A stretch of 64,000 nucleotides of DNA. Source: an uncultured Acidobacteriota bacterium (lineage in GTDB: Bacteria > Acidobacteriota > Terriglobia > UBA7540). The notes under the pieces were generated by a model that was not told the DNA's origin, did not search any database, and saw only the letters and a list, made by a program, of their open reading frames with translations. The position numbers and the translations under genes are program-made. The DNA lies in NCBI GenBank assembly GCA_963804995.1, contig CAWDSK010000005.1, positions 832,001-896,000 of the forward strand, read 5' to 3'. Positions 1 to 63,944 of this stretch are shown piece after piece (positions within the stretch are counted from its first letter, which is position 1; every line of letters begins with the position of its first letter).

Positions 1-1871
1 CCAGCATGGGCCCGGTATTGATGCCCACCCCGATATCCAGGCGCGGCAAACCTCTCGACTCCCATCCCTTTTGCAGGCGCTCCAGACCTTCGAGCATCTC
101 CAGACCCGTCCGGCAGGCCCGCAAGGCGTGGTCGGCCTGCGGATAAGGGGCGCCCCAGAAGGCCATGATGGCATCGCCGATGTATTTATCCAGGGTTCCC
201 CAATTCTTGAAGATCAACTCGGTCATTTCGGAAAGATACTCGTTGAGCAGGTCGACAAGCTTGGCAGGCGTGAGCCCTTCGGAGAGGGTGGTAAATCCGC
301 GAATGTCCGCAAATAAAGCCGTCAGCTCCTTTTCTTCCCCTCCCAAGCGGAGGGACTTCCGGGCTGCTGAGCATCTGAGCAATCAGCCCGGGGTGCATAT
401 ACTGGGAAAAGGCGGAGCGGACCTTCTTCTTTTCACCCTCTTCAAAGAAGAAGCGGTAACTGACGATACCCGCATAGGTGATCCCCAGCGTCGACATGGG
501 AAGAAAATCCGCGATCCATATCCTGTACTGGGCGAAGAGATGATAGGTCAGCAAAAAATACAGAACCAGGGAACTGGCCAGGACCAGGGTGGCGCGCAGG
601 GGGCTGAGGATGCTGATCAGCATCCCCGCTCCCAGGCTGAACAGGATGATAAAGGCGATGTCGGTCAGATGCTCGCGCGGACCGCGCCGGATAAAATGTT
701 GATAGAGAATATCATCAATCATATTGGCGTGCACTTCAATGCCGGGGAATCCCACCTGTTGGAAGGGTGTGAGCGCGGTGTCACCGATGCCCGTCGCGGT
801 GGGGCCGATCAAGACCAGCCGGTCACGAAAGAGCGCTGGCGATAACTTGTGACGAACAACGTCTGAAAACGAATAGGTGGGGAAGGTGCCGACGCGGCCA
901 TCGTAATCAAGCTGGACAAAGCCCTGCAGGTCCGTGGGGATGATGAGCGGGCCCATGTCGATCCTCTCCAGCCCGTTGGGGTTGAAGATCAGCTTTACCC
1001 GTTCCAGCGAGTAGTTGGTGTAGGCCAGGGTCGCGGCCACATCCAGGGAAGGATAGAAGTTGCCCTGGAAGGACACCACGGCGGGCTCGCGGCGGACGAT
1101 GCCATCGGGGTCCGGGATGATATTGAAGAATCCAAAATTCTTGGCGTTGGCCGCAAACTGCGGGAGATTGGGGGAGATGCCTAGCGCTTCCGGAACATCG
1201 GAATTCTTGGCGTATTGCGGGTTGATAATTTGCGGATAGGTTTGGAAGGACAGATAATTCAGGAAATCCTTCAGGCGCTCCTGGTTTTGAGTTTTGGTCT
1301 CCTCGGGTGGAATAACGAAATACCCCAGGATCGCATTGTCGAAGTGGGAAAGGGCATCGGCAAACTGCGTGTCGTTGTCGGCGGTCGCCTGCCGGGACTT
1401 CAGACTGGATTCGAAAGCGGGCGCGCGCGCGGCCCGTGTTACGAGGTGATCGTAATCCTCTTGAACTGACCGTAACGCCTGGAGAGCTGAATTGGCGTCC
1501 ACTTGGGGGAAATTGATATCAAAAGTGATGACGCGGGCATGGGCGCCGCGCAGAAAGTCAACCGCTTGCCCGAAGTAGCTGCGCGGAAAGGGCCAGCGTC
1601 CCAACACGTCCTGGCTCTTCTGATCAATGGCCAAGATCACCACGGCCGGCCCCGGGATGCGCGCCCCACGCAGTTCGAATCGAACGTCGAGCGTCTTCAG
1701 CTCAATGTTGTTGAGGAATCGAAGCAGTGAATTGGGGTGAGGCAGTATGTAGACGGCCGCATAGAGGGCTAGGCTGACGATACAGATCGAGATGCTGATC
1801 AGAAAGGAGTCGCGGTTTCGTGCGCTGAACTCGCGGGCGCGGGAACCGAAATGTGCGAGTTTTCCAAACAT
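1..1871 (-). CDS. CHASE2-domain adenylate/guanylate cyclase; frameshifted near 356 and truncated by the window edge
   Basis: ORF 186..1904 has CHASE2 motifs (ELKTLDVRF, IDQKSQDVLGRWPFPR, PDPDGIVRR, PGIEVHAN) and TM helices. The class III cyclase domain continues in another frame: LRLGGEEKELTALFADIRGFTTLSE...DKYIGDAIMAFWGAP...GVGINTG. Start taken at ATG 1871. Confidence 0.88.
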
Positions 1872-50580: not shown

Positions 50581-50822
50581 TTTTTGGCAAACCGGCATCA
50601 AGGTAATAAAAATGTAATCGGCATAGGATTTCGACATGGAGTGTTTTGGGTCCGTTAGACATTTGAGGCTTTAGGGGATGCGGTCTGACTGTGTCCTGAG
50701 GGATTGTAAATTTAAGCCAAGCTTCCGATTAGCGTTGCAGTTTGCTTAATTTCTGATGCAAGCAGCGATTTGCAACAATGACACGCCAACCGCCCCCCGC
50801 AAGCTTCGAGGGAGGGTTTGAA

Positions 50823-52487
50823 ATGTACCTTGGCACCTCTAGCCGCCGGGTCATGACCCACACCCGCCCGCGGGTGGGTCGGATTACGGCCTCGCTGCCC
50901 GATTCCCATCACATTCTGGAGGACATCCTTTCTGAACCCCTGGTGCGGAAAGCCTTCTCGTGGATGACGCGTCGCGATCCGGACGGCAAGTGCTTCTTCA
51001 TGCGGCTGTGCGAGAATTACGACAACCCCCAATCAGACTTCTGGAAGCGGCTGAAGTGGAGTGTGCCGAACCGGGTCATCGATCTGGGTCTTTGGAAGGC
51101 CAAGCTCGACAAGGAAACGATGAAGCAGCGGCTCTTCCACCATCCCCCCACGGTGAAGGCCCTGACGTTGACGGCCAAGAGCATCGCGACCTACGGTTTG
51201 ACGGTACCGCAGCGCTACACGGCGCCCATGTTTCCGGTCTGGAACATCACGCAGGCGTGTAACCTGTCCTGTAAGCATTGTTACCAGAACGCCCACCGCA
51301 TGCCGGATAAAGACGAGCTGACCACGGAGGAAAAGCTCAGGCTCATTGACCAGATGGGTGAGGAGTTCGTGCCTTTCCTCGCCTTCGCGGGCGGTGAGCC
51401 GCTGGTTGCCCCCGATCTTTGGAAGGTGCTGGAGCGTTGCGAGCAGCAGGGCATTCACGTGACCCTGGCCACCAACGGCACGCTGCTGACGCCGGAAATG
51501 TGCGCTCTTCTGAAGGACGCCAATGTGAAATACGTTGAGGTCAGCCTGGACAGCATCGATCCCGCCACGCACGACGCCTTTCGCGGCCAGCCCAAATCCT
51601 GGGAAAGAACTGTGCAAGGAATTCGCAACTGTGTGGCCGCGGGCATCAAGACCGGCTTGGCGTCCTGCTTCACGCGCCAGACCGCACACACGGTAGACGA
51701 CACCATTAAATTGGCCATCGATCTGGGCTGCAAGACGTTCTCGCATTTCAATTTCATTCCGGTCGGACGAGGCCAGGAAATCATGCAGCAGGACCTGACG
51801 CCGGGCCAGCGCGAACTGCTGTTGCGCAGACTCAAGGAACACTTGGAGGAAGGCAAAATTACGGTAGTTTCTACCGCGCCGCAGTTTGGCCGCACCTGCA
51901 TCGTGTATGGGCCGGAGGAAGGGTTATTCGCCACAGGGCACGCAGGCCGCGGTCCGGGGAAGAAGACCATGGTGCTTTCGCGTTACATCGGCGGGTGCGG
52001 AACGGGCCGCTGCTATTGCGCCATCCAGCCGAACGGAATCATCACCCCTTGTGTGTACATCTCCGGTATCAAAGTGGGCGACATTCGCGAGCGCAGTTTT
52101 CACGAAATCTGGAACAACGCCCTCTTTGACAAGCTTTCCGACCGCGAAGATCGCGGCGACCACTGCGGCGTTTGTACCTACCGGCATTACTGCGGCGGTT
52201 GTCGCGCCCGAGCCTTGGCTTATACGGGTGATATCCTGGCAGGCGACCCGGGCTGCATTTACAATCAGCACGAGTGGCAGGAAATCACCGACGCGGAGGG
52301 CCGTGGCGCAGGCGTAGAGCTCACCCCTGACATGGCCAAGACGGCGGCACAACTTGTGCAAATCGCTACCACCGCGGTCGAGGCGGGGGCCGAGTCAGCC
52401 AACCTCTGGGGGGTTTCGGAGCGGGAAGGGCGGCTGATTAATGACCTGGCCGCGCGGTTGAAGTCCACGTTCACCAATCCCAATTGA
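50823..52487 (+). CDS. Radical SAM/SPASM protein with a long N-terminal extension
   Basis: CNLSCKHC, GGEP, TNG, SLD; SPASM CGTGRCYCAIQPNGIITPC...CGVCTYRHYCGGCRARA...DPGC. Confidence 0.93.
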   Translation: MYLGTSSRRVMTHTRPRVGRITASLPDSHHILEDILSEPLVRKAFSWMTRRDPDGKCFFMRLCENYDNPQSDFWKRLKWSVPNRVIDLGLWKAKLDKETMKQRLFHHPPTVKALTLTAKSIATYGLTVPQRYTAPMFPVWNITQACNLSCKHCYQNAHRMPDKDELTTEEKLRLIDQMGEEFVPFLAFAGGEPLVAPDLWKVLERCEQQGIHVTLATNGTLLTPEMCALLKDANVKYVEVSLDSIDPATHDAFRGQPKSWERTVQGIRNCVAAGIKTGLASCFTRQTAHTVDDTIKLAIDLGCKTFSHFNFIPVGRGQEIMQQDLTPGQRELLLRRLKEHLEEGKITVVSTAPQFGRTCIVYGPEEGLFATGHAGRGPGKKTMVLSRYIGGCGTGRCYCAIQPNGIITPCVYISGIKVGDIRERSFHEIWNNALFDKLSDREDRGDHCGVCTYRHYCGGCRARALAYTGDILAGDPGCIYNQHEWQEITDAEGRGAGVELTPDMAKTAAQLVQIATTAVEAGAESANLWGVSEREGRLINDLAARLKSTFTNPN

Positions 52488-52533
52488 GGGGACGTGGCCC
52501 CGGATGACAGCAGGTGCCAGAAGGGATGAATAC

Positions 52534-53079
52534 ATGACTGAATTCACCAACGTTCCCCAGGACGGGGATGGCACCGGAGCGTCCTCGAAGCATGAGACCG
52601 GGCAAGCGACGCTCGCGGCCATCAGCGAAGTCTCGATAGCGGCCACGGATGCTGTGGACCAGATTGCGGCCGCACCCCGAAAGACTAGCTGGCTGCCCAT
52701 CGCTGGTTTCCTGCTCTTTGCTTATGTTGCCAGCAGCTTCTCTGTAATCTACACACTGAAATCAGAACCATGGGTGCAAGCTTTCCTAACGCCGATAATC
52801 CCGGCGCTCATCGCCGCGTTGGTGTTCTGGCGGTGCCAGGTGTGGAAGTTCCGCTCGCGCGAGTGGAGAGGCAAGGAGAAAGCGCGGCATGACGCCCTGA
52901 ACTCACTCGCCCACGAAGCGGCAAACGGCGTCAACGCCATCCGCGCGAATTTGGCCGGTCTCAGTGAGGCGACTTCTGAGACTACCGCCGAGGACCACCG
53001 GAAACAGGTGGATCGAGCCCTCGCCCGTATCGACGCAGCCCTCGAAAGGGCAGTTCGAGAAACGCAGCCAACCAAATAG
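52534..53079 (+). CDS. Two-TM membrane protein with an H-box-like helix
   Basis: Two hydrophobic segments followed by SLAHEAANGVNAIRANL; co-oriented 46 bp after the radical SAM gene. Confidence 0.65.
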   Translation: MTEFTNVPQDGDGTGASSKHETGQATLAAISEVSIAATDAVDQIAAAPRKTSWLPIAGFLLFAYVASSFSVIYTLKSEPWVQAFLTPIIPALIAALVFWRCQVWKFRSREWRGKEKARHDALNSLAHEAANGVNAIRANLAGLSEATSETTAEDHRKQVDRALARIDAALERAVRETQPTK

Positions 53080-53245
53080 AGAGCGCCGAAGCCAGGCGTG
53101 GAACTACGCACTCCATACCTTATGTGGGTACTCGAAACCCGCGACTCTTGGTATCATAGGGGAGGAGCGGCCGTGGAGTTAAGGTATCGGTCCGCCCTTA
53201 GGTTCGGAAGGCCTGCGGTCCTGACCGCCCAATCCATCTCAAAAT

Positions 53246-53689
53246 ATGCCCAAGCGCAAAACCACTTCAGTCCCTGTCCTCAATCCTCAATACTGCTGCT
53301 ACCGCCTGCGAGTGGCACAGTCTAAGATTCATCGCTGGGGTGTTTACGCTGCGGAGGACATCCCTGCTAACCGCAAGGTAATCGAGTACACGGGTGAAAA
53401 AATCCCTCCCCGCAAGGCCGAGCGGCGGGCGAGTACGCCTTACCTTTTTGTACTCAACAAGTACTGGACGCTCGACGGCGGGGTGGGAGGCTCCGGCGCA
53501 GAGTTGATCAACCATTCCTGCGAGCCCAACCTGGTGTCTCGGATCATGAAGGGCCACATCCTTTACATGAGCCTGCGGCCGATCGAAAAAGGGGAGGAAT
53601 TGCTGGTTGATTACAACTACGACGACACCGACGAAACCATGCGTTGCCTCTGCGGACAACGGAATTGCCGCGGGGTCATTAATCGCTAG
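53246..53689 (+). CDS. SET domain protein-lysine methyltransferase
   Basis: SKIHRWGVYA, INHSCEPN, GEELLVDY, post-SET CLCG..NCRG. Confidence 0.93.
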   Translation: MPKRKTTSVPVLNPQYCCYRLRVAQSKIHRWGVYAAEDIPANRKVIEYTGEKIPPRKAERRASTPYLFVLNKYWTLDGGVGGSGAELINHSCEPNLVSRIMKGHILYMSLRPIEKGEELLVDYNYDDTDETMRCLCGQRNCRGVINR

Positions 53690-53862: not shown

Positions 53863-56800
53863 TTATCGCGCATTCGCGCTGATGCGTTTGAAGGTGACGC
53901 GAACGCTCTCACCGTTCGTCCCGGTTGCTTCCCCACCGGCGAGCAAAGACTTGGCATCGATGGCGTTTCCGAGATCCTCATAAAGCTCATCAGAAAGGTA
54001 ATTTGCCGCGCCCATTCGTCCGGCTGCAATCCAGGCCTCGATTGCGGGGTTGAATGCCGCCCCCAGCAGCGCGGCGTGGCCCTCGGGCAGTCCGCTGCTC
54101 CTCGCCAAATCCGCCAGGGAGGTGTCGCTCAAGATACGCTGCATATCCTGGCCTGCTTTCGACGCCGGCGAATTTCCTTTGAGCAGAGCGTCAGCCAGAC
54201 TGGAAATCGTCAGTTGCTCCGCAATCTTCGATTTCACAATCTGCTCGAAGGTTTCGCCCCCCAGGAAACGCTGCAAGGAGTTGATGAGGTCGCGGAATTC
54301 CTTGCGGGCGGCTTCATTCTTCGCGGGGTCGGGATCGAACGTAATGTGCTCAACATCAATCTGGGAGAGAACGTTCTTAAGCGCGGCTGGATCGCCCGCC
54401 GTCCCCGCGGCATTCGCGGCGGCCATCTCCTGATCGCAAGCGCGTCCGGCCTTCCAGAGATCCTGAAGAATCGGGATGGGAGCAGGCTTGGCCAGCTTGC
54501 GCCCAAAAGCTTCCCGAGTGAATTCATGACAATAGTAGAGATTCTGAAAAGGCGGCTGGTCGGCGATCGTTGAAGACTCCATAAAAAGGAAATCATATCC
54601 AAGCTGGGCTTTCGCCCCGATTTCCACGGCTCGCGCCGCCGCCACCTTGCCGATGGGGTAAGGTTGCCAGGAGGGCGCGCTGCCCTCCCTGCGCTCGACC
54701 ATTCCCACAGGGCGATATACCTCTAGCGTCCCGACGTTCGCCCCTTCCAAAAAAGATTCGGGCTGGGTGGGCAGGGACTTCATCTGTTGATAGACAGCGG
54801 CGTCAGCAGGAGTGAGCGGCGTGTACTCGTAACCCCAACCAATCTCATTCACCATATAAAAGGGTTTGCCCTGGTAGCTCTCAGTCTTGATAAGCCCGGA
54901 GTGGTTTTGGGGACTTTGGGGTGAACCCAAGGCGCGCTGGACGTAGCCGATGGGGCCGCCCGTGCGCAGCACCACATCACCATCGGCAAGCTGATACGGC
55001 CGCTTTTGGGGATCATCGGGGTCAGGGAGTAGCGCGATTTCCTGAGGAATGCTCCCATTCGCCGCCGCGACTTCCTTGTAGGTTTTCGTCGTGGTCTTTG
55101 CCTCGCGGAACGTTGCGACACCGAGGGCGATGTCGTCCAGCGTCGTCTTGTAGAGCAGGGGACAAAGCCGCTGCTTGATTTCGTACTGAATGGGCACGCT
55201 CGCGAGGTACGCCTCACCATCTGTCACTCCCACGCGAATCAGCACAACACCTGGCTTGGCTCCGACATTGAATGCTAATTCCAAACCGGTTCCCAGCACC
55301 TGCCAAGGAGAATCGGGTGAGGGGCGTTGATACCACGTCACCTGCGAGGATGCCGGTGGCTTGTCAGCGGAGGTAAGCAGCTTCAGCCGGGCCGAGTCTG
55401 ACGTGTAAAACGTTCCGCCAGGAATCACCTCCTGCCAAACACCTTCCGGGGGCAGGTCGTGCTTGGGCGCACCCAGTGATTCGTTGATGCCTTCGAGGCT
55501 GAGGACCAGCAACTCGCGGCGCTCGGCGGAAAACCGCACGGTTGCTTCCTTCTTGCCGCCCGAAACCGAGGGGATGGAGAGGGCCGTCGCGCCTTCGAAA
55601 GCCCGAAGCGCCGCGGCCATTGGCACACAGGTTTTGGGCCCAGGACACACGGCGATTAGCTTGCCATCGGCCGTGAGCAGAGGACCGCCTGACTCACCGG
55701 GATCGAGCGCCCGCGCCAACCGTACAAGACCGGCGGTGCCAGCGCTGGGGCGGGATTCGAGAGTGACGTCAACCTGCTGAACTTTAGCTTGTTCTTGATC
55801 GGTGCCGAAGGGAAAGCCCAGCAAGGTGGCGGATGATGGCGTTGCCCCCTCGCCCGTGGGCAGGAGTGGCGTGACAGTGCTGGACTCACCAACGATCTTG
55901 AGCCACGCCAGATCATTTGCCCCTTCCGCATGTACATTGATTATTTCCGGGGGATTCGAGCTGCCCGCGGCTGGCTTGGGTTCCATAAGGTCCGCCGGCA
56001 GCTTCCACAATTCCAGAGTGTGCCGGCTGGTGCTTAACGCGTCGGTCAAGTCAAGCTCACCTTTCACCGTCATGACCCGTGTATCGATGGGCCAAGCGGC
56101 GAGCTGGTAGGTTTTGGGATCCAGTTCGTATCCGGAGCGGCTCATCAAGGACAACACCTGGGCGTCGAACTTCCAGGGTTGAACAACTCGTTTGGCGGTC
56201 AGCAGCGTGCCATCGGTGTCAATCAGGAAAGCAGTGCCGGACTGCGCGTAGCGCTGCACATCGTGGGTCCGCGGATTGCGCAAAGAGTAGGCACAGTAAA
56301 TCAGGAACATGCGTCCTGCCGCGGCGGCCGAGAGGGTGCGGGCCGTGCTCAACTTTTCCTGGCGCTGCTTCGCCAACACGCCCGCGGCGAGCGAGAAGGG
56401 TGTCGAAAGGGTGTCGATCAACTTGAGAACCGCGGCCTGGATCATGGGCTCGTCGGTGAAGGCGTGCATGGGGATGGTTTGATCCAGGTTGACGGGCAAC
56501 ACAACCTGCCGCGCCCTCATCACCGCCGCTTCCAGAGTGCTCAACTGGACCAGAATAAAGAGCTGCCCCGTGAGGTGCAAAGTATCCTGACTTACCAGCC
56601 GGCGGATAGGTTCAAGTGAGTCGAACTCCGCGAAAACGAAGGACAGGCGAAGCGGCGTGGGCAAATCCACCGCGGCGCTCTTCGACAACCGAAACTCCGT
56701 GTCGTAGGGTTCAACGTGGACGGGCAGGTCATTGGCGCGCACGTCCTGAAAGTAGATCTTCACGACGGTGGCCGGCCGGTCAACCGGATTCATGCTGACG

Positions 56801-57039
56801 AACAGGTTGAGTGCCAGGTGGTCGAGGTTGATATCCTGATAGGCCACACTGCGCACCACGGTGAGATCGCCTTTCATCTTTTCCGAGGTCTTCTCCGGCA
56901 GGTGATAAACCTTGACTCCCTTCAGGCCGGAAGGTAACTCAGCCTGCTCCTTGTTATCGGGAAGAGGAGCGCGGGAGAATCCCAAAGCACACGTTAGGAC
57001 GAAAGTGATAGCTGCGAACGCGATGGTTTTGCGCGCCAT
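53863..57039 (-). CDS. Large secreted protein: trypsin-like domain plus permuted papain-like (YiiX/NlpC) domain
   Basis: Signal peptide MARKTIAFAAI; SGTAFLI...LLTAKRV, DLAWLK, PGESGGPL; later DGDVVLR...HSGLI...YD...YCHEF. Confidence 0.7.
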   Translation of the reverse strand: MARKTIAFAAITFVLTCALGFSRAPLPDNKEQAELPSGLKGVKVYHLPEKTSEKMKGDLTVVRSVAYQDINLDHLALNLFVSMNPVDRPATVVKIYFQDVRANDLPVHVEPYDTEFRLSKSAAVDLPTPLRLSFVFAEFDSLEPIRRLVSQDTLHLTGQLFILVQLSTLEAAVMRARQVVLPVNLDQTIPMHAFTDEPMIQAAVLKLIDTLSTPFSLAAGVLAKQRQEKLSTARTLSAAAAGRMFLIYCAYSLRNPRTHDVQRYAQSGTAFLIDTDGTLLTAKRVVQPWKFDAQVLSLMSRSGYELDPKTYQLAAWPIDTRVMTVKGELDLTDALSTSRHTLELWKLPADLMEPKPAAGSSNPPEIINVHAEGANDLAWLKIVGESSTVTPLLPTGEGATPSSATLLGFPFGTDQEQAKVQQVDVTLESRPSAGTAGLVRLARALDPGESGGPLLTADGKLIAVCPGPKTCVPMAAALRAFEGATALSIPSVSGGKKEATVRFSAERRELLVLSLEGINESLGAPKHDLPPEGVWQEVIPGGTFYTSDSARLKLLTSADKPPASSQVTWYQRPSPDSPWQVLGTGLELAFNVGAKPGVVLIRVGVTDGEAYLASVPIQYEIKQRLCPLLYKTTLDDIALGVATFREAKTTTKTYKEVAAANGSIPQEIALLPDPDDPQKRPYQLADGDVVLRTGGPIGYVQRALGSPQSPQNHSGLIKTESYQGKPFYMVNEIGWGYEYTPLTPADAAVYQQMKSLPTQPESFLEGANVGTLEVYRPVGMVERREGSAPSWQPYPIGKVAAARAVEIGAKAQLGYDFLFMESSTIADQPPFQNLYYCHEFTREAFGRKLAKPAPIPILQDLWKAGRACDQEMAAANAAGTAGDPAALKNVLSQIDVEHITFDPDPAKNEAARKEFRDLINSLQRFLGGETFEQIVKSKIAEQLTISSLADALLKGNSPASKAGQDMQRILSDTSLADLARSSGLPEGHAALLGAAFNPAIEAWIAAGRMGAANYLSDELYEDLGNAIDAKSLLAGGEATGTNGESVRVTFKRISANAR

Positions 57040-57326
57040 AATCCAGGAGCTCCCTGCGGAACGAAATCCAGATATTCCGTTTCCGCCACAACCAGCAGAT
57101 TGCATATTAACCGGCATGGGTTCTGATTGCGGAGTATAGCAGCTTGCGAACCGGCAGGATAATGCCAACCGAGGCATTGCTGCCTTGCTTCCTAAAAAGG
57201 CTTAGCGCGGCTAAGCGGCATGCGAAAAGTCATAGGAAGAAAACGCATGAGGATGGGAAAAGTAGTGGGACCTCGCTCGCTATGCCGCGCGGAGAGCAAC
57301 AAGTGGGACGTCCCACTTCTTTACAA

Positions 57327-57530: not shown

Positions 57531-57648
57531 AGGCGCCACTCCGATATGTTGTCAGCACCACCGATTTATCTTTTCAGTACCACCCCGGCGCTCGGCGCGC
57601 CACCCCTCCTCATCTGAGGAGGGGAGTTTTAGTGCCACTGCCCCGCGC

Positions 57649-58209
57649 TTAATTCCCCAGCTTGACCGGGACGGAGCCATTCTCCGTTGGCGCTTTGCTG
57701 AGGTCCAGGAGGAGCTTAGGTGTGACCTTCTTGTCGTTGCACAGCACCGGGAATTGCAGTGTGGACTGGCGACTACTCGCGCCGGCCACGAGCACAAAAG
57801 CAAGTTTCCGGGATTCCACTTGCATGCTCTTTATCGAAACACCGGAAATCTTGATGGCGTCGCGCTTGAGCCCCTCAAAGCTGAGCCGCGTGGGTCCCGG
57901 ATGGGCGGAAAGATTCAATTGAAGGTTCCAGCGCGTGCCCGACTTGACCCAACGGGTTTGCTGATCGAGGCACCCGCGCAAGAGGAGTTCGTCAGGGTTC
58001 TCGCAGCAACCGACGGGGGGAGGCAAAGGATCGCAGACTTGCGGTGGCCCCGGCGTTTGCGCCTTTGCCCCGCAGGCCAGGACGATTCCTGTCCCCACGG
58101 TTGTGGCCGTGCGCATCAGATTTTCCAGATGGGCCAGGGTGCGCTCCCTGACCGTCCCCGCGCCGGGTTCAGGCGGCGAAAGGCCTTTTCGCGTTCGGTT
58201 CTTTTTCAT
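57649..58209 (-). CDS. Hypothetical lipoprotein-like protein with a VCDPLPPP motif
   Basis: GGAG RBS; IVLAC lipobox-like motif, then PGPPQVCDPLPPPVGCC and a beta-rich domain; downstream of the B12 radical SAM gene. Confidence 0.7.
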   Translation of the reverse strand: MKKNRTRKGLSPPEPGAGTVRERTLAHLENLMRTATTVGTGIVLACGAKAQTPGPPQVCDPLPPPVGCCENPDELLLRGCLDQQTRWVKSGTRWNLQLNLSAHPGPTRLSFEGLKRDAIKISGVSIKSMQVESRKLAFVLVAGASSRQSTLQFPVLCNDKKVTPKLLLDLSKAPTENGSVPVKLGN

Positions 58210-58422
58210 GAAATCTCCATTTCTGTTCTGTTGGCTTAGCTTCACACTGCCGTGCAATACGGTAATGTCTTATTTTTGAGCGAGGACTTTGTGCCATCGT
58301 GCTGTGAAACGCTCCCTGGTCGTCAATTGGTGCCTGGGCGACCCCCTCACCCGTCCCGCCCCGGCTGATGAAAACGCCGGTTGCGGTCCACCCTCTCCCC
58401 CAAGGGGGCGAGGGTTATAGAT

Positions 58423-60045
58423 TCAAATCAACATCCCTTTCACAGGTGAGAAATCCGCGTCAGCCTCACACTGCCCAGCCTCACGAATCGTGTTTTCGAT
58501 TTCTGTTTCGAGTCTGCCGGCCGCCTCGTGGATCAGGCGCTCCGTGGCTCGGAGCCTGGTGGTAAGCTCCGCTGTGAATTCCATATCTTCCTGGCTTGGT
58601 CTGCGCGCTTTCACGAATCCGATGATCTCCCGCACTCCCCGCACGGAATCCAGCGTCAGCTCGCGAGTGAGTTCTTTAGCTTTCACCCGCCAAGCCTCGC
58701 GGAAAACTTGCGGATGAAATCGGGCCGCCACCTCCACAACAAATCGTGTGCCCATCAGAAGATTCGCGGCGGACTCACCGGAGAAGTTGCGCACATAGAA
58801 ACACTGCATGGCCAGCTCAAAGATTCTCTGCACTTCGTCGTCGTGGATTCGATAATTCCAATCGAGGTAGTCTCCCTGGCATCGCCCCTCCGCCTGCATC
58901 ATGGCGAGGAGCGGCGTACCGGCATAGAGCTCGACGCGGCCAAAGTTCTGCGGTACGGCGGCGAATTTCTCCATGAAGGCGAGATTAGTTTCGAGATCCT
59001 GGATTTCGGTCGACGGGTCAAAGATGAGCGTATTGAAGCAGGCGTAAATGCCAAACCGCTCCATGAGTTCGAGGGCAGCACCATTCTGCGCACTCCCCAC
59101 CCGGCGTCCCATGGTCAGCAGACCCTGCTCGGAATTACTTTCGATGCCCACATAAACCCGGATGAGCCCCAGCCGCTCCCGCATTGCAGATATAAGCTCC
59201 GGGTCGAGGTCGTTGGGGCGCGCCTTGACGACCGTGGCAATATTCCGAACCCCGCGCCGCTCCAGCGCGTCGGCCAGGGAGGCAACGCGCTTCAGGGTTT
59301 GGGCGCGATTGGGCAGGAAAAAATTATCGTCATGGAAGATAAAGATATCGATTTTTCTTTGGTGATACAGCGCTGCCATTTCCTCGGCAACGTCCTCCAC
59401 TGGTCGCAGCCGGAAGCGCTTGCCGGGTTGGGTTTGCTCATGCCAGGCGGAGATGCAACAAAAAGCGCAGTTCGCATAGCAACCACGACTGGCTACCAGG
59501 GGAGCCACGCGGTGACCGAGGCATTCGGACGGCGCCCCGCGGCGATCGGGCGGAGGGAGTTTGTGCAGATCGGGAGGAGCGGGCAAGGCCGTCAAGCGGA
59601 TTTCACCGGGCGCGTCGCGGTAAGCCAGGCCGGGGATTTGGGCTACGTCACTTTCCGAGCGGAGAGCCTGCGCGAGCCTCACCAGGGTTTCCTCCGCCTC
59701 GTGCCGGCAGATCGAATCGATCTCCGGAAAATCTCGCAGGATTTCCCGGCACGCAAAGGTTCCGAAATGGCCGCCCGCGGTGATATGCCCCGTATAGTCT
59801 CTTTGCCGAAGCGCGATGCTAAGGGCGAAAAAATCCTTCGCCCGGCGCTGGAAGGAAAGGGAAAGCCCGATGAGCGCCGGCGGTTCACCTGAATCGAGCA
59901 ACCTCGCAAGCACCCGGGGCAGGTCGTGAGGGCCGTCGAAGGGAACTATGGCGGACTCAAATCCGGCGGCTTCAAGGGACGAGGCAAGATATCGCAGACT
60001 GAGGTTTTCTTCGAGTTCAGGGCCAACCAGCGCAACTTGGAACAC
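58423..60045 (-). CDS. B12-binding radical SAM protein (class B methyltransferase-like)
   Basis: EENLSLRYLAS, ITAGGHFGT cobalamin domain, SRGCYANCAFC, FHDDNF, VGIES, YAGTPL. Confidence 0.92.
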   Translation of the reverse strand: MFQVALVGPELEENLSLRYLASSLEAAGFESAIVPFDGPHDLPRVLARLLDSGEPPALIGLSLSFQRRAKDFFALSIALRQRDYTGHITAGGHFGTFACREILRDFPEIDSICRHEAEETLVRLAQALRSESDVAQIPGLAYRDAPGEIRLTALPAPPDLHKLPPPDRRGAPSECLGHRVAPLVASRGCYANCAFCCISAWHEQTQPGKRFRLRPVEDVAEEMAALYHQRKIDIFIFHDDNFFLPNRAQTLKRVASLADALERRGVRNIATVVKARPNDLDPELISAMRERLGLIRVYVGIESNSEQGLLTMGRRVGSAQNGAALELMERFGIYACFNTLIFDPSTEIQDLETNLAFMEKFAAVPQNFGRVELYAGTPLLAMMQAEGRCQGDYLDWNYRIHDDEVQRIFELAMQCFYVRNFSGESAANLLMGTRFVVEVAARFHPQVFREAWRVKAKELTRELTLDSVRGVREIIGFVKARRPSQEDMEFTAELTTRLRATERLIHEAAGRLETEIENTIREAGQCEADADFSPVKGMLI

Positions 60046-60186
60046 TTGTGTTTCCTTCCGTGCACAAGCGAGTGGATTCTATCTTGAAATTCAAGAGAGC
60101 GCAGACCTGTTTTGGAGGTCTGCGGTTCGTCCCCCCATTGTCGATAAAAAGCCGCGGACCTACAGGACAGGTCCGCGCTACCTGCT

Positions 60187-60539: not shown

Positions 60540-60583
60540 TCCAACCTGCAACCCACGATCTTTGACAACTGGAGGTGAGAAGT

Positions 60584-61330
60584 ATGGAGAGGCGTGAAGT
60601 TTTGCGGAAGTGCCTCGGCGGTGCAAGCCTGGCACTGGTTGCGCCAAGATTGCTTCCTGCTGTAAACCAAAATCAAACTGTGGAGAGGCCCGCGGATTTC
60701 CAAACGGTAGTCGCTGATGCCCTGTCAAGCTACTACTGGGGTGAGTTCAAGCGCGCCTGTGATCTTTACACGCGGGCGCTGCTGCTTATTCCCCCCAACC
60801 TCGCAATCGCCGATTTGGCTGATATTCATGAACAACGCCTCACGGCATGGGAACTTGTGAAATCGGCGGAGGAGACTCTTCCTGCCCACCAAGCAGGCGT
60901 TCAAGCTGAGCCCCAGGATGCGGAGAAACATTTCTGGCTCGGGTACACTCTCACCCGCCTCGACCGCCATGAGGAAGCACTGCGAGAATACCAAGCGGCC
61001 TTGAAGGGGGGCTATCAAGGCAAATGCTGGAACGAAATCGGCTGGTGCTACTACCGGATGGGAATGCACCGGGAATCGATCAAATGGTTCGAGCGGGCCT
61101 GTGAAGGCGAGGATACTCTTCCCGTGCCTGGCTTATCGCAGCAATGCAACGCAATGGCGAACAAGATTGTGGCTTTTGCCGCGCTGCGGATGACTCGTGA
61201 AGCTCATGACACCGCCAGCAAGTATATTCGCCAATATGGCCGGCTTTCCTGGCCCGAACGCCGTGCGCTCGCCAATCTCAACATCGACGCCGACGCGATG
61301 TACGTCAATCACTGTACCCGCGAGGCCTAA
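60584..61330 (+). CDS. TPR-repeat protein with Tat-like signal
   Basis: MERREVLRK...; TPR patterns HFWLGYTLTRLDRHEEALREYQAAL and WNEIGWCYYRMG...WFERA. Confidence 0.8.
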   Translation: MERREVLRKCLGGASLALVAPRLLPAVNQNQTVERPADFQTVVADALSSYYWGEFKRACDLYTRALLLIPPNLAIADLADIHEQRLTAWELVKSAEETLPAHQAGVQAEPQDAEKHFWLGYTLTRLDRHEEALREYQAALKGGYQGKCWNEIGWCYYRMGMHRESIKWFERACEGEDTLPVPGLSQQCNAMANKIVAFAALRMTREAHDTASKYIRQYGRLSWPERRALANLNIDADAMYVNHCTREA

Positions 61331-61427
61331 CAGAACACCATTACGGTTCGGGGAAAACGAGCGGGTGGTATAATCGCGCCCGCTCGTTTCCCCAAGGTTT
61401 CAGCCCCTGCACGCGGAGGTTCCTACT

Positions 61428-62402
61428 GTGCCTCGCGGTGATCAACTGACACGCCAATGGAAACTCGTCCAACTCCTGGCCGGTCGGGTGGGGCGGACAC
61501 TTGCCCAACTCATGGGTGAGTTAGGCGTCAGCAAGCGCACCGTCCAGCGGGACATCGAAGTCCTAACCTCAGCAGGTTTCCCGGTCACTTCGGAGACGCG
61601 CAACGGCACGGTGTTCTGGCGCTTAATGGAAGGCTTCCATGCCGAGCGGCCTATTGCGCTGACGCTGACTGAACAGATGGCGCTCTATTTCAGCAAGGGC
61701 CTCTTCAAGCCCTTGCAGGGCACACCCATGTACGAATCGCTGGAAGCCGCTATTCAGAAGATCGGGTCACAGCTTCCCGCCCAGAGCTTCAAGTTTCTTC
61801 GTGGCTTGGACGAAGGCATCTCAGTATCCAGTTTTGGGCTAAAGGATTTCAGCCATTCGAAAGAGGTGATTCATACTTTGACCCATGCCGTATTCCAAAA
61901 GTTCACTATTCGAATTCGGCATCAGGCGGCGCACAGGGCGAAGGCTATTGAGCGCGAGGTTGATCCCTACAAGCTTTGGTACGTGAATAACGGATTGTAT
62001 CTGGTCGGTCACGACCACCGGGAGGAGGCCCTGCGGACCTTCGCCGTGGAACGGATTCAGTCTGCCCAAAAAACCAACCGGCGATTTGAAGTCCCGGAAG
62101 ACTTCAAGTTCGAGGATTTCAAACGGACCGCCTTCAGTATGGTCTGGGGCGAGCCGCAGGAAGTGAAGATCCGCTTCTCGCCGTCGCAAGCCCCATACAT
62201 TCGCGAGCGCACCTGGCACGCCAGCCAGACAATTGAGACTCATCGCGACGGGAGTATAATCCTGACGCTTTATGTCGCCGAGTTGGATGAAGTCAAGCGC
62301 TGGCTGATTGGCTTCGGCGCGGATGCTGACGTATTGGAACCTAAGGCGCTAAGGACGGAAATTGTTGCTCAATGCAGAGCCCTGGCTCGCCGGGAACGGT
62401 AA
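61428..62402 (+). CDS. HTH-WYL-WCX transcriptional regulator
   Basis: wHTH (ELGVSKRTVQRDIEVL), REVDPYKL...LYLVG...LRTFAVERI, WHASQ, WLIGFGADADVLEP..LR. Confidence 0.93.
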   Translation: MPRGDQLTRQWKLVQLLAGRVGRTLAQLMGELGVSKRTVQRDIEVLTSAGFPVTSETRNGTVFWRLMEGFHAERPIALTLTEQMALYFSKGLFKPLQGTPMYESLEAAIQKIGSQLPAQSFKFLRGLDEGISVSSFGLKDFSHSKEVIHTLTHAVFQKFTIRIRHQAAHRAKAIEREVDPYKLWYVNNGLYLVGHDHREEALRTFAVERIQSAQKTNRRFEVPEDFKFEDFKRTAFSMVWGEPQEVKIRFSPSQAPYIRERTWHASQTIETHRDGSIILTLYVAELDEVKRWLIGFGADADVLEPKALRTEIVAQCRALARRER

Positions 62403-62454
62403 AGGACCAGCTACAATTACTCTCAGAAAAGACAATCGCAGACACGGGAGACCA

Positions 62455-62889
62455 ATGGCCGCCAAGAAGGGAAGCAACGCCGAAAGCGTGGACCAACTTA
62501 TAGCAGAAATCTCAAAAATAGGCGGGGGTGCGGCCCTAAGAAGCGCGCTAAGAGAGATGCTCGGGCGAAGCGAATATAAGAGCGGGGCAGCGCGCGTTCT
62601 TCGGGATTTTCAGCGATTTCTGCAAACCCTTGCCCGCTCCGGTTTCAAGTTTTCCGAGACTTTCGGGGGTGAACTCCGATTTGCCCAACACGACTTCCCT
62701 GAACACATTGTCGCGCTGGCGCCTCAGCGTAATGGGAGTGTCGGATGGTCACATTTCTCTCCATGGGGGACGACTAACGGAACGGGGTTGCGCTCGCTTA
62801 AGAAGCTACTTGCGGAACGCTATGGGAGGGGAATCGCCTATCGCGGCAGGAGACGCATTATTCTTGCAGGCCCGTCGTCGGTGGAATGA
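62455..62889 (+). CDS. Hypothetical protein
   Basis: GGGAG RBS, 144-aa ORF co-oriented after the WYL gene; no recognised motif. Confidence 0.55.
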   Translation: MAAKKGSNAESVDQLIAEISKIGGGAALRSALREMLGRSEYKSGAARVLRDFQRFLQTLARSGFKFSETFGGELRFAQHDFPEHIVALAPQRNGSVGWSHFSPWGTTNGTGLRSLKKLLAERYGRGIAYRGRRRIILAGPSSVE

Positions 62890-63077
62890 GTGAGCGTCGA
62901 ACTGCTGCCCCCAAAGTCACTCCCCACGGGGAAGACAAGTGCTGGCTGATTCGCTTCGGCGCTGAGGCCTGTGTACCTACACCCAGCACTTTGCAGATGG
63001 AGATTGCCAGGGAGTGCCAATATTTGGCGGGCAGCGTGACCGACAAGTGAGGGCACCTCGGGAGGGAGGAATCCGGC

Positions 63078-63944
63078 GTGGGAAAAGAAGAGGGACCGAT
63101 TGGCACGATCCACCACTGGGCAGAACTGGCCAGAACACGCTCCGCTCTCAAACCGAAACGAAGGGTCACTTGGAAAAGCGTCAACCGCATGATTAGTTCC
63201 GCCCGAACGGTGTGGCTGGCGGAATCCGCTAAGTTACGTGACCTATTGCGAGAGTCAAACATGCGTTCTGAGCCTCTAAGCGATCCCTTGCTTTCGAATT
63301 TTGACCTTCATCGCTGGCTGGCGGGGGAACGCGAAGAAGTGTATTCGGACTGGCTGGAGTGGGTTGTAAAGCAGCTTCCGACGCTTGGAGATGTCTTTTA
63401 TGTACTCGGCATCGAGGAACCCTCGGAGATCGCTTCTGAAGCTCTCTCCACGTGCTCTACGGAACGGGAGAAGTGGGTGACGCTGCCCCATTGGGAATCC
63501 AATAAAAGACTTGACCTTGTGATTCGATGCGAGGGCCGTGTCCTTGTTCTGATCGAAGTTAAGATAACCTCTCCCGAAGAAGCTGACACGGCGAAGCAGG
63601 AGGAGTACTTTGAGTGGGGGGAAAAGCAACTGGAAAGTCAAAGGTACTATATCCTCCTTGCCAAAGCGGGCGAGCGCCCCGAGTACCACAAATTTAAGCT
63701 CCGCACGTTCGAGGGTCTCTGTCGGGCGCTGAGGAAACGAACCCCTGAAGTTATCAGGGAGAAGAAAATGACGGTCCTCACGGGGGCACTGGTTTTCGCT
63801 TACGTCGGGGCCATCGAACAGAACCGGCTGGGTCTGTCGTCGGGCGCGGCGCAGAGGGTATTTCGCGGAGAAGATATCGCAACGGCCCGAAGGCTTGCAC
63901 TTTATCTCGAAGACAACTTAGAGGGGAGCAACGACGATGGATGA
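63078..63944 (+). CDS. PD-(D/E)XK nuclease superfamily protein
   Basis: EEVYSDWLEW...RE...RLDLVI...LIEVK...Q..Y pattern; start uncertain. Confidence 0.75.
   Translation: MGKEEGPIGTIHHWAELARTRSALKPKRRVTWKSVNRMISSARTVWLAESAKLRDLLRESNMRSEPLSDPLLSNFDLHRWLAGEREEVYSDWLEWVVKQLPTLGDVFYVLGIEEPSEIASEALSTCSTEREKWVTLPHWESNKRLDLVIRCEGRVLVLIEVKITSPEEADTAKQEEYFEWGEKQLESQRYYILLAKAGERPEYHKFKLRTFEGLCRALRKRTPEVIREKKMTVLTGALVFAYVGAIEQNRLGLSSGAAQRVFRGEDIATARRLALYLEDNLEGSNDDG

Follow-up and report, generated by a model that had tools for sequence, protein, structure and literature searches.

The modification of exported proteins by radical enzymes has only just been shown, and the two systems concerned, HXS and the DAG-RiPPs, are the closest described relatives in logic of the locus analysed here; in the literature searched we found no case that depends on cobalamin. 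According to its main text, the HXS system (HxsABCD) matures a repeat-motif protein in the cytoplasm by radical SAM chemistry, after which the protein is processed and reaches the periplasm; it consists of four genes, two of them for radical SAM enzymes, and is marked by a His-x-Ser motif, a mass change of +8 Da and an anti-phage role, and the word cobalamin is absent from that text (PMC13128918). In the DAG-RiPPs (DybA/DybH, NedA/NedBC), a precursor with an export signal and a repeated target motif is modified before export and loses its leader to the host signal peptidase; the enzymes are MNIO enzymes acting on Cys, lipidation is proven, and the main text holds 0 matches for radical, rSAM, cobalamin or B12 (PMC13056109).

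Cobalamin-dependent (B12) radical SAM enzymes are described from other settings. ApyD, from the aminopyruvatide pathway, acts on a ribosomal precursor, in which it methylates Tyr C-beta, contains an RRE and has MNIO, P450 and methyltransferase partners (10.1101/2023.10.30.564719). MpcB and MpcC, from the clavusporin pathway, carry out leader-dependent methylation, including that of Pro C-beta, which MpcB dimethylates; they have a CX7CX2C motif, need a DUF5825 protein and come with their own protease and transporter (PMC10849626). QCMT/MgmA acts on a residue of a folded protein, methylating a Gln (PMC13469106), and the substrates of QCMT/MgmA and OxsB, cytoplasmic (MCR) or a nucleotide, are presented as having neither leader nor export signal (PMC13469106, PMC9204698).

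The window, by which we mean the whole 64,000-nucleotide stretch of Acidobacteriota DNA that was analysed, contains a minimal two-gene case in which a B12 radical SAM enzyme is encoded beside an exported-looking protein with a conserved acid-proline tag, so that the genome itself names the substrate. The pair is conserved across many bacteria and is apparently undescribed, and since the pairing recurs so widely, often as a fused gene, the enzyme likely modifies the tag of its partner before export. That the two stand in an enzyme-substrate relation we regard as highly probable.

The enzyme, its partner and their surroundings

The features of the locus are as follows.

58423..60045 (-): cobalamin-dependent (class B) radical SAM enzyme, 540 aa, with B12-binding domain, partial TIM barrel and helical C-terminal domain
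59674..60009 (-): B12-binding domain, residues 13-124, containing the motifs G60-x-S62 and G91-G92; the leader is predicted to bind on its outer face
59458..59481 (-): CxxxCxxC cluster motif (C189, C193, C196), read from the sequence
58340..58425 (no strand): interspersed palindromic repeat, about 380 overlapping blastn hits in the genome, hairpin z -2.4
57649..58209 (-): partner of 186 aa, of no Pfam or NCBIfam family; likely the substrate, and likely exported
58105..58155 (-): leader helix, residues 19-35, a predicted docking handle from conservation and models
58060..58104 (-): weakly hydrophobic export signal, residues 36-50, with probable cleavage between A-K-A and Q51 or at C46
58015..58032 (-): target motif D60-P-L-P63-P-P65, from conservation; residues 62-66 lie at the barrel in the complex model
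57652..58014 (-): small beta-sandwich of Ig-like type in which Cys69 and Cys80 are conserved; relatives have unrelated domains in its place

The cobalamin-binding and radical SAM character given to the larger gene, 58423-60045 (-), in the preliminary description is borne out by two Pfam matches above cut-off, PF02310 (45 bits against 32.1, E 1.2e-11) and PF04055 (43.9 bits against 29.5, E 3.7e-11). The cluster cysteines C189, C193 and C196 are kept in 113, 112 and 113 rows of a 113-row enzyme alignment, in which G60-S62, G91-G92 and the SAM-binding residues D239-N241, E302 and R314 are also conserved; by its domain order and by these CX3CX2C, G-x-S, GG and SAM-binding motifs, defined as in PMC9204698, the enzyme belongs to class B. 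The GE motif appears as H115-E116 (G-E in 67 of 131 wider rows). On the lower face of the cobalamin, where TokK has a Trp and TsrM an Arg (PMC9204698), sequence comparison places S64 (A in 76 and S in 36 of 113 rows) and Q66 (113/113), with neither the Trp nor the Arg at the matching positions, and basic residues of the barrel are kept in most of 130 representatives from 50% clustering (K274 126, R276 127, R296 124, R370 125). The protein falls below every NCBIfam cut-off, the top score being that of ApyD (99/750 bits) and the others BchE (86/481), HpnR (82/650), HpnJ (57/578) and MgmA (59/360); the profile of the CUAEP-tail enzyme family, a family merely named in the text of 10.1101/2022.07.06.499078, gives 30/500 bits. 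The structure model (pLDDT 94.6) finds OxsB as its best fold match (E 9e-24), which is also the top match by sequence at 18-20% identity, with TsrM, MgmA, CysS and TokK behind it and an identity of 13-20% across all five.

The 186-aa reading frame of the partner (57649-58209, minus strand), with its RERTLAHLENLMR leader, IVLAC and PQVCDPLPPPVGCC segment, is present as first described. A search for homologues at E<=0.001 gave 44 proteins including the partner itself, in all of which D60, P63 and P65 are invariant (P61 in 41), while residue 59 is Cys in 18, Val in 23 and Met in 3, so the conserved unit is D-P-x-P-x-P rather than the CDPLPPP proposed earlier. The leader residues R21, R23 and H27 are kept in all 42 homologues that span the region. 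The export signal, whose best 11-residue window has a mean hydropathy of 1.9, ends at a site with two readings: the Cys of the lipobox-like IVLAC (Cys46) recurs in 36 of 44 homologues, and A48 (38), A50 (36) and Q51 (37), which read as a signal peptidase I site, are kept equally well. Because Cys46 is not invariant and the signal peptidase I reading fits equally, lipidation of the partner is one of two possible outcomes. Of the leader and core fused to a folded lipoprotein that had been proposed, the leader and tag are conserved, whereas the lipoprotein is only a possible reading and the folded domain is interchangeable.

The model of the partner shows the leader helix, then disorder, then an Ig-like sandwich, in keeping with the beta-rich domain noted earlier; the best structural match of the sandwich (Z 6.5, rmsd 3.4, 93 residues aligned) is a generic, middling Ig-like one, and the protein has no match in Pfam, NCBIfam or the Atlas and none by Foldseek at E<=0.001. 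HxS repeats are absent from its sequence. The motif pattern matches only 3 of the 111,380 ORF segments that six-frame translation of the 7.55 Mb genome yields, the window locus being among the three, which indicates that its presence here is not due to chance, and neither tblastn nor the motif scan found a second partner in the host. The genome has 13 B12-binding matches and encodes Lgt; CobS was not found in the assembly, which is 92% complete.

A purine-rich stretch resembling a ribosome-binding site precedes both genes, and the promoter and terminator scan stayed at chance level. The repeat-containing gap of the preliminary description does exist (213 nt), but its repeat is a genome-wide palindrome: given the roughly 380 blastn copies, and the close spacing of enzyme and partner matches in metagenome relatives that have no such gap (for example 2 nt in L051 and 8 nt in L054), we rejected it as a part of the system and take it to be an unrelated interspersed element. 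Palindromic repeats also flank the pair at 57570-57630 (about 190 blastn hits) and 60100-60185 (about 50).

A divergent run at 60575-63944 (+) encodes a TPR protein, a WYL-domain regulator, an unknown 175-aa ORF and a PD-(D/E)XK nuclease with weak PDC-S26 matches, and is defence-like; the WYL and PD-(D/E)XK genes were considered as parts of the system and set aside as local genes that do not lie beside the enzyme in relatives. On the other side, 53863-57177 (-) encodes 1104 aa that include a trypsin-like domain, the C-terminal half being uncharacterised; this gene does not travel with the pair. At 50778-53689 (+) a radical SAM/SPASM gene resembling NirJ2/AhbD, with scores under the cut-offs, precedes a membrane-like ORF and a SET-domain gene.

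Recurrence of the pair and contexts of the tag

The GTDB scan for the enzyme returned 48 loci at 34-59% identity, and the pairing count rests on those 46 in which sequence continues for 300 nt or more past the enzyme core (L024 and L038 were left out). An acid-Pro tag lies within 900 nt downstream of the enzyme in 38 of the 46, against 6/46 upstream and 3/46 on the reverse strand, for a pattern that was composed after inspection of the loci and with related loci that are non-independent. At loci of the separate-gene type the tag is found downstream in 25 of 26. The eight misses include two variants visible by eye (L026, L043), four Spirochaete loci in which His replaces the acid, one short enzyme without a tail (L034) and one enzyme with no partner within about 1 kb (L014). 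In the reverse direction, enzyme sequence lies upstream of the partner in 16 of 19 metagenome loci, and the other three have less than 420 nt of upstream sequence. Hence the survey of enzyme neighbourhoods, which had been set beforehand as the refuting test of the first proposal, found motif-bearing neighbours in both directions. In L055 (4697-5567) and L056, both among the 16, an intact partner stands behind an enzyme remnant comprising the last 100 residues.

No third gene is conserved with the pair across loci, nor is a defence context, and PADLOC has no match for either gene. The family is patchy: at the thresholds used, any match occurs in 5 of 60 related genomes and 7 of 400 genomes sampled from the phylum, with one close window-type orthologue among these matches, and records of the enzyme branch come from Acidobacteriota, Myxococcota, Gemmatimonadota, Planctomycetota and Spirochaetota.

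Enzyme relationships were drawn from a quick tree and from FastTree. The 53 ingroup rows of the quick tree fall into the window clade (28 rows), where the partner is separate and of Asp type, a second clade (22 rows) in which a substrate-like segment, mostly of Glu type, is fused to the enzyme, and a small third clade (3 rows), again with a separate partner of Asp type. Partners share the leader, the signal and the tag, and the remainder differs: the tag is followed by an OmpA domain in L011, by TonB-C and carboxypeptidase-regulatory domains in L022, by TSP3 repeats in L025, by ankyrin in L027 and elsewhere by no known family, and in L006, L008, L010, L012, L013 and L045 the partner is a low-complexity peptide bearing the tag twice. 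For the fused forms we took the best 150 representatives at 50% clustering, of which 130 had a near-complete core and were aligned. A long C-terminal tail is present in 92 of the 130, 86 of these tails contain a signal-like stretch, and 75 of the 92 carry the loose tag [DE]xx[PA]xP, compared with 45 expected from shuffles; an unbiased word count over the 92 tails returned EMA in 33 (3.0 expected) and H-x-x-E-x-A in 27 (2.6 expected). The shared leader, signal and tag, the repetition of the tag and the fused tails together form the pattern of a substrate motif. On the enzyme tree the Asp tag type changes 4 times against a shuffled mean of 16.0, which reflects tracking of the tree and not co-evolution, because kin share labels. 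In distant relatives the acid is kept while the prolines vary (DPAM, DSAF, EMAPVS), and in four Spirochaete fusions a His stands in for the acid, with the basic barrel residues retained and the last Pro kept in their tails.

Several variants were met along the branch. The tails of the largest fused clade (P0179-P0294) carry T-H-x-x-E-M-A-P repeats rich in His, Met, Cys and Glu, and our guess is that they bind metal after modification. Upstream of sister-clade enzymes (about 33% identity where measured) lie small peptides that have no export signal (L073:3032-3232 on the minus strand, L072, L074, L078-L081) and carry DPxP-like motifs (WWDPIGPP, a repeated VVDPAPW, IADPVPE, VMDPAML) followed by a helical segment; the one peptide searched has no Pfam or NCBIfam match, and from their sequences they look like a cytoplasmic precursor family of the same enzyme branch. 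Downstream of the L069 enzyme, at 228-1124 (-), a signal-less protein of about 300 aa ends in three HHAEMAPYP repeats, and L071 has a comparable protein with two REM[AV]P (both enzymes 38-39% identical); judged by these repeats, the tag is shared by a cytoplasmic protein.

Predicted complex, target residue and rival readings

A complex of enzyme residues 1-525 and partner residues 14-72 was modelled with a score of 0.84, the best control reaching 0.28; of 157 solved complexes 116 attain the mark used, as do 2 of 215 mismatched pairs, figures that apply roughly to alignments made here. Agreement between runs extends to at least 33% of contacts, and the partner, whose own fold is uncertain in the model, has a pLDDT of at least 48. 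In the model, the leader (19-35) is placed on the B12 domain (39-43, 67-78, 101-106) and on residues 392-394, and partner residues 62-66 (LPPPV) contact N338, N367, G369, R370, E372, N420 and F421 at the barrel; the most confident contacts are all made by the leader. The complex modelling suggested by the preliminary description returned a predicted arrangement with the leader bound to the outside of the B12 domain and the tag extending to the barrel. Among 29 selected rows, from two or three lineages only, the enzyme surface that would take the leader is conserved in 20 that fall in the R-x-R...H leader group, the partnerless L014 included, and drifts in 9 whose partners carry other leaders. 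Residue 338 was tried as an Asp/Glu specificity switch and dropped: it was clean in 50 rows, was broken by L069-L071, L077 and the representatives, and is N338 in 110 of 130 of the latter, Glu types included.

We lean, if only slightly, towards a two-gene system in which the enzyme, gripping the leader, C-methylates the D-P-x-P-x-P tag in the cytoplasm before the predicted export; among the various reactions on record for such enzymes, methylation (+14 Da) is the likeliest. The enzyme would hold the leader helix (residues 19-35) through its B12 domain, so that no separate recognition protein would be needed. By analogy with class B chemistry, one SAM would yield a 5'-deoxyadenosyl radical that takes hydrogen from the tag, and methylcobalamin would deliver the methyl group to it. 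The long leader and weak hydrophobic stretch may allow late export, after which signal peptidase I (after A-K-A, before Q) or II (at C46) would remove the leader; trimming by a host peptidase would account for the lack of any dedicated protease or transporter gene. Once modified, the tag would come to lie near the N-terminus of the mature protein, and a stiffened, protease-resistant stalk at the surface or in the periplasm is our guess for the product.

Within the tag, the beta-carbon of Asp60 is favoured modestly over a Pro, because the barrel lining is conserved and basic and because, in relatives, the acid (Asp or Glu) is retained more steadily than the prolines. A Pro target is pointed to by the confident model contacts, which involve residues 62-66 and not D60, by the methylation of Pro by MpcB and by the last Pro retained in the His-type Spirochaete tails. 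Against the reading as a whole stand the best structural match, OxsB, which is not a methylase, the lower-axial S64/Q66, the failure to find CobS, the His-type Spirochaete fusions with their retained basic residues, the partnerless L014 and the enzyme remnants of L055 and L056.

Where the product resides is a separate matter, compatible with either chemistry. A DAG-RiPP-like, lipid-anchored protein cut at C46 is a real possibility that we place somewhat short of an even call. The frequency of C46 among homologues and the presence of Lgt speak for it, as does a small-small-Cys after the hydrophobic stretch in most separate partners of other phyla and in 52 of the 86 signal-bearing fused tails; on the other hand, 8 of the 44 close homologues are without C46, most of which have an A/G-Q site of small residues shortly after that position, C46 comes late, after a 35-residue leader, and tandem paralogues use another Cys (TQGC). 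Tandem partner copies occur in 8 of the 19 metagenome loci. In some second copies (L002:8109-8609, L003:8208-8723, L007:5228-5758) the signal finishes with the Cys of CDP itself, which would put the tag Asp at +2, described as the inner-membrane retention position in the main text of PMC13056109, and its modification could affect sorting.

That the pair is an enzyme and its substrate but the reaction is not a methylation, and consists of an acid-Pro cross-link (+3/+5), a decarboxylation or a backbone rearrangement at the tag, seems to us somewhat unlikely. Such chemistry would suit the rank of OxsB as top sequence and fold match, the fixed spacing of D60, P63 and P65 and the non-canonical lower-axial residues, and it has parallels in PbsB, a B12 radical SAM enzyme that cross-links a peptide (PMC12257519), and in the HXS enzymes, which put +8 Da on an exported protein (PMC13128918). 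Yet annotated members of the class mostly appear to be methylases, as summarised in PMC9204698, the identity to OxsB is merely 18-20%, and PbsB, as described, requires aromatics pre-hydroxylated by extra enzymes (PMC12257519), which are absent here. A wider version, in which a new cross-link or rearrangement is made at a portable acid-Pro tag and the cytoplasmic DPxP peptides of the branch are substrates too, we consider unlikely; if true, the tag and docking leader, grafted onto unrelated exported proteins, would be a portable address for radical chemistry, and in many lineages an internal export signal would join them to the enzyme in one fused protein.

It is quite improbable that the partner is a regulator, anchor or carrier and that the enzyme, like HpnR, HpnJ and BchE, has a lipid or small molecule as its target. 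The NCBIfam similarity to these three and the restriction of the most confident model contacts to the leader would agree with such a role, but the similarity is weak, with scores far below the cut-offs; moreover, the tag is repeated in otherwise featureless peptides, its type tracks the enzyme tree, and it is located past the export signal, so that an enzyme in the cytoplasm would have access to it only before export. That the genes are chance neighbours, as the 213-nt gap with its dispersed repeat might suggest at this one locus, has practically no standing in view of the neighbourhood counts (38/46 and 16/19) and the fused tails (92/130).

Relation to described systems

The first description knew of no characterised example. 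Modification before export does have precedents, in HXS and the DAG-RiPPs; none was found with a B12 enzyme, and no description of this enzyme-partner family turned up in the literature, covered mostly as open-access main texts, so that subscription papers or supplements may hold one. The window system shares with HXS the proposed order of events, and differs from it in its single B12 enzyme, its acid-Pro tag and the absence of any PADLOC match; for HxsB, HxsC and HxsD the pair has no match in NCBIfam or PADLOC. With the DAG-RiPPs it shares the precursor layout, and the MNIO (DUF692) enzyme that defines them is here a B12 radical SAM enzyme, with no conserved third gene and with lipidation optional or unproven. 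ApyD is the best NCBIfam match, and its RRE and partner enzymes are not present. In contrast to MpcB/MpcC, the cluster motif is CX3CX2C and none of their accessory genes occur. QCMT/MgmA and OxsB have the same fold (PDB 9ccb, 5ul2-4) at 16-20% identity to the window enzyme.

A leader and tag that function on unrelated domains might be put to use as a portable label for modification. The fused forms pose a further puzzle, namely by what route an enzyme could act on its own exported tail and afterwards let it go. Since the genome names the substrate, this orphan enzyme branch is testable by co-expression in E. coli. A putative RiPP logic, in which the leader would be bound, the core separate and the leader later removed, is supported by conservation and by the predicted complex. 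As read from sequence, the window system would work like a RiPP pathway whose product is an exported protein, and is a member of neither HXS nor the DAG-RiPPs.
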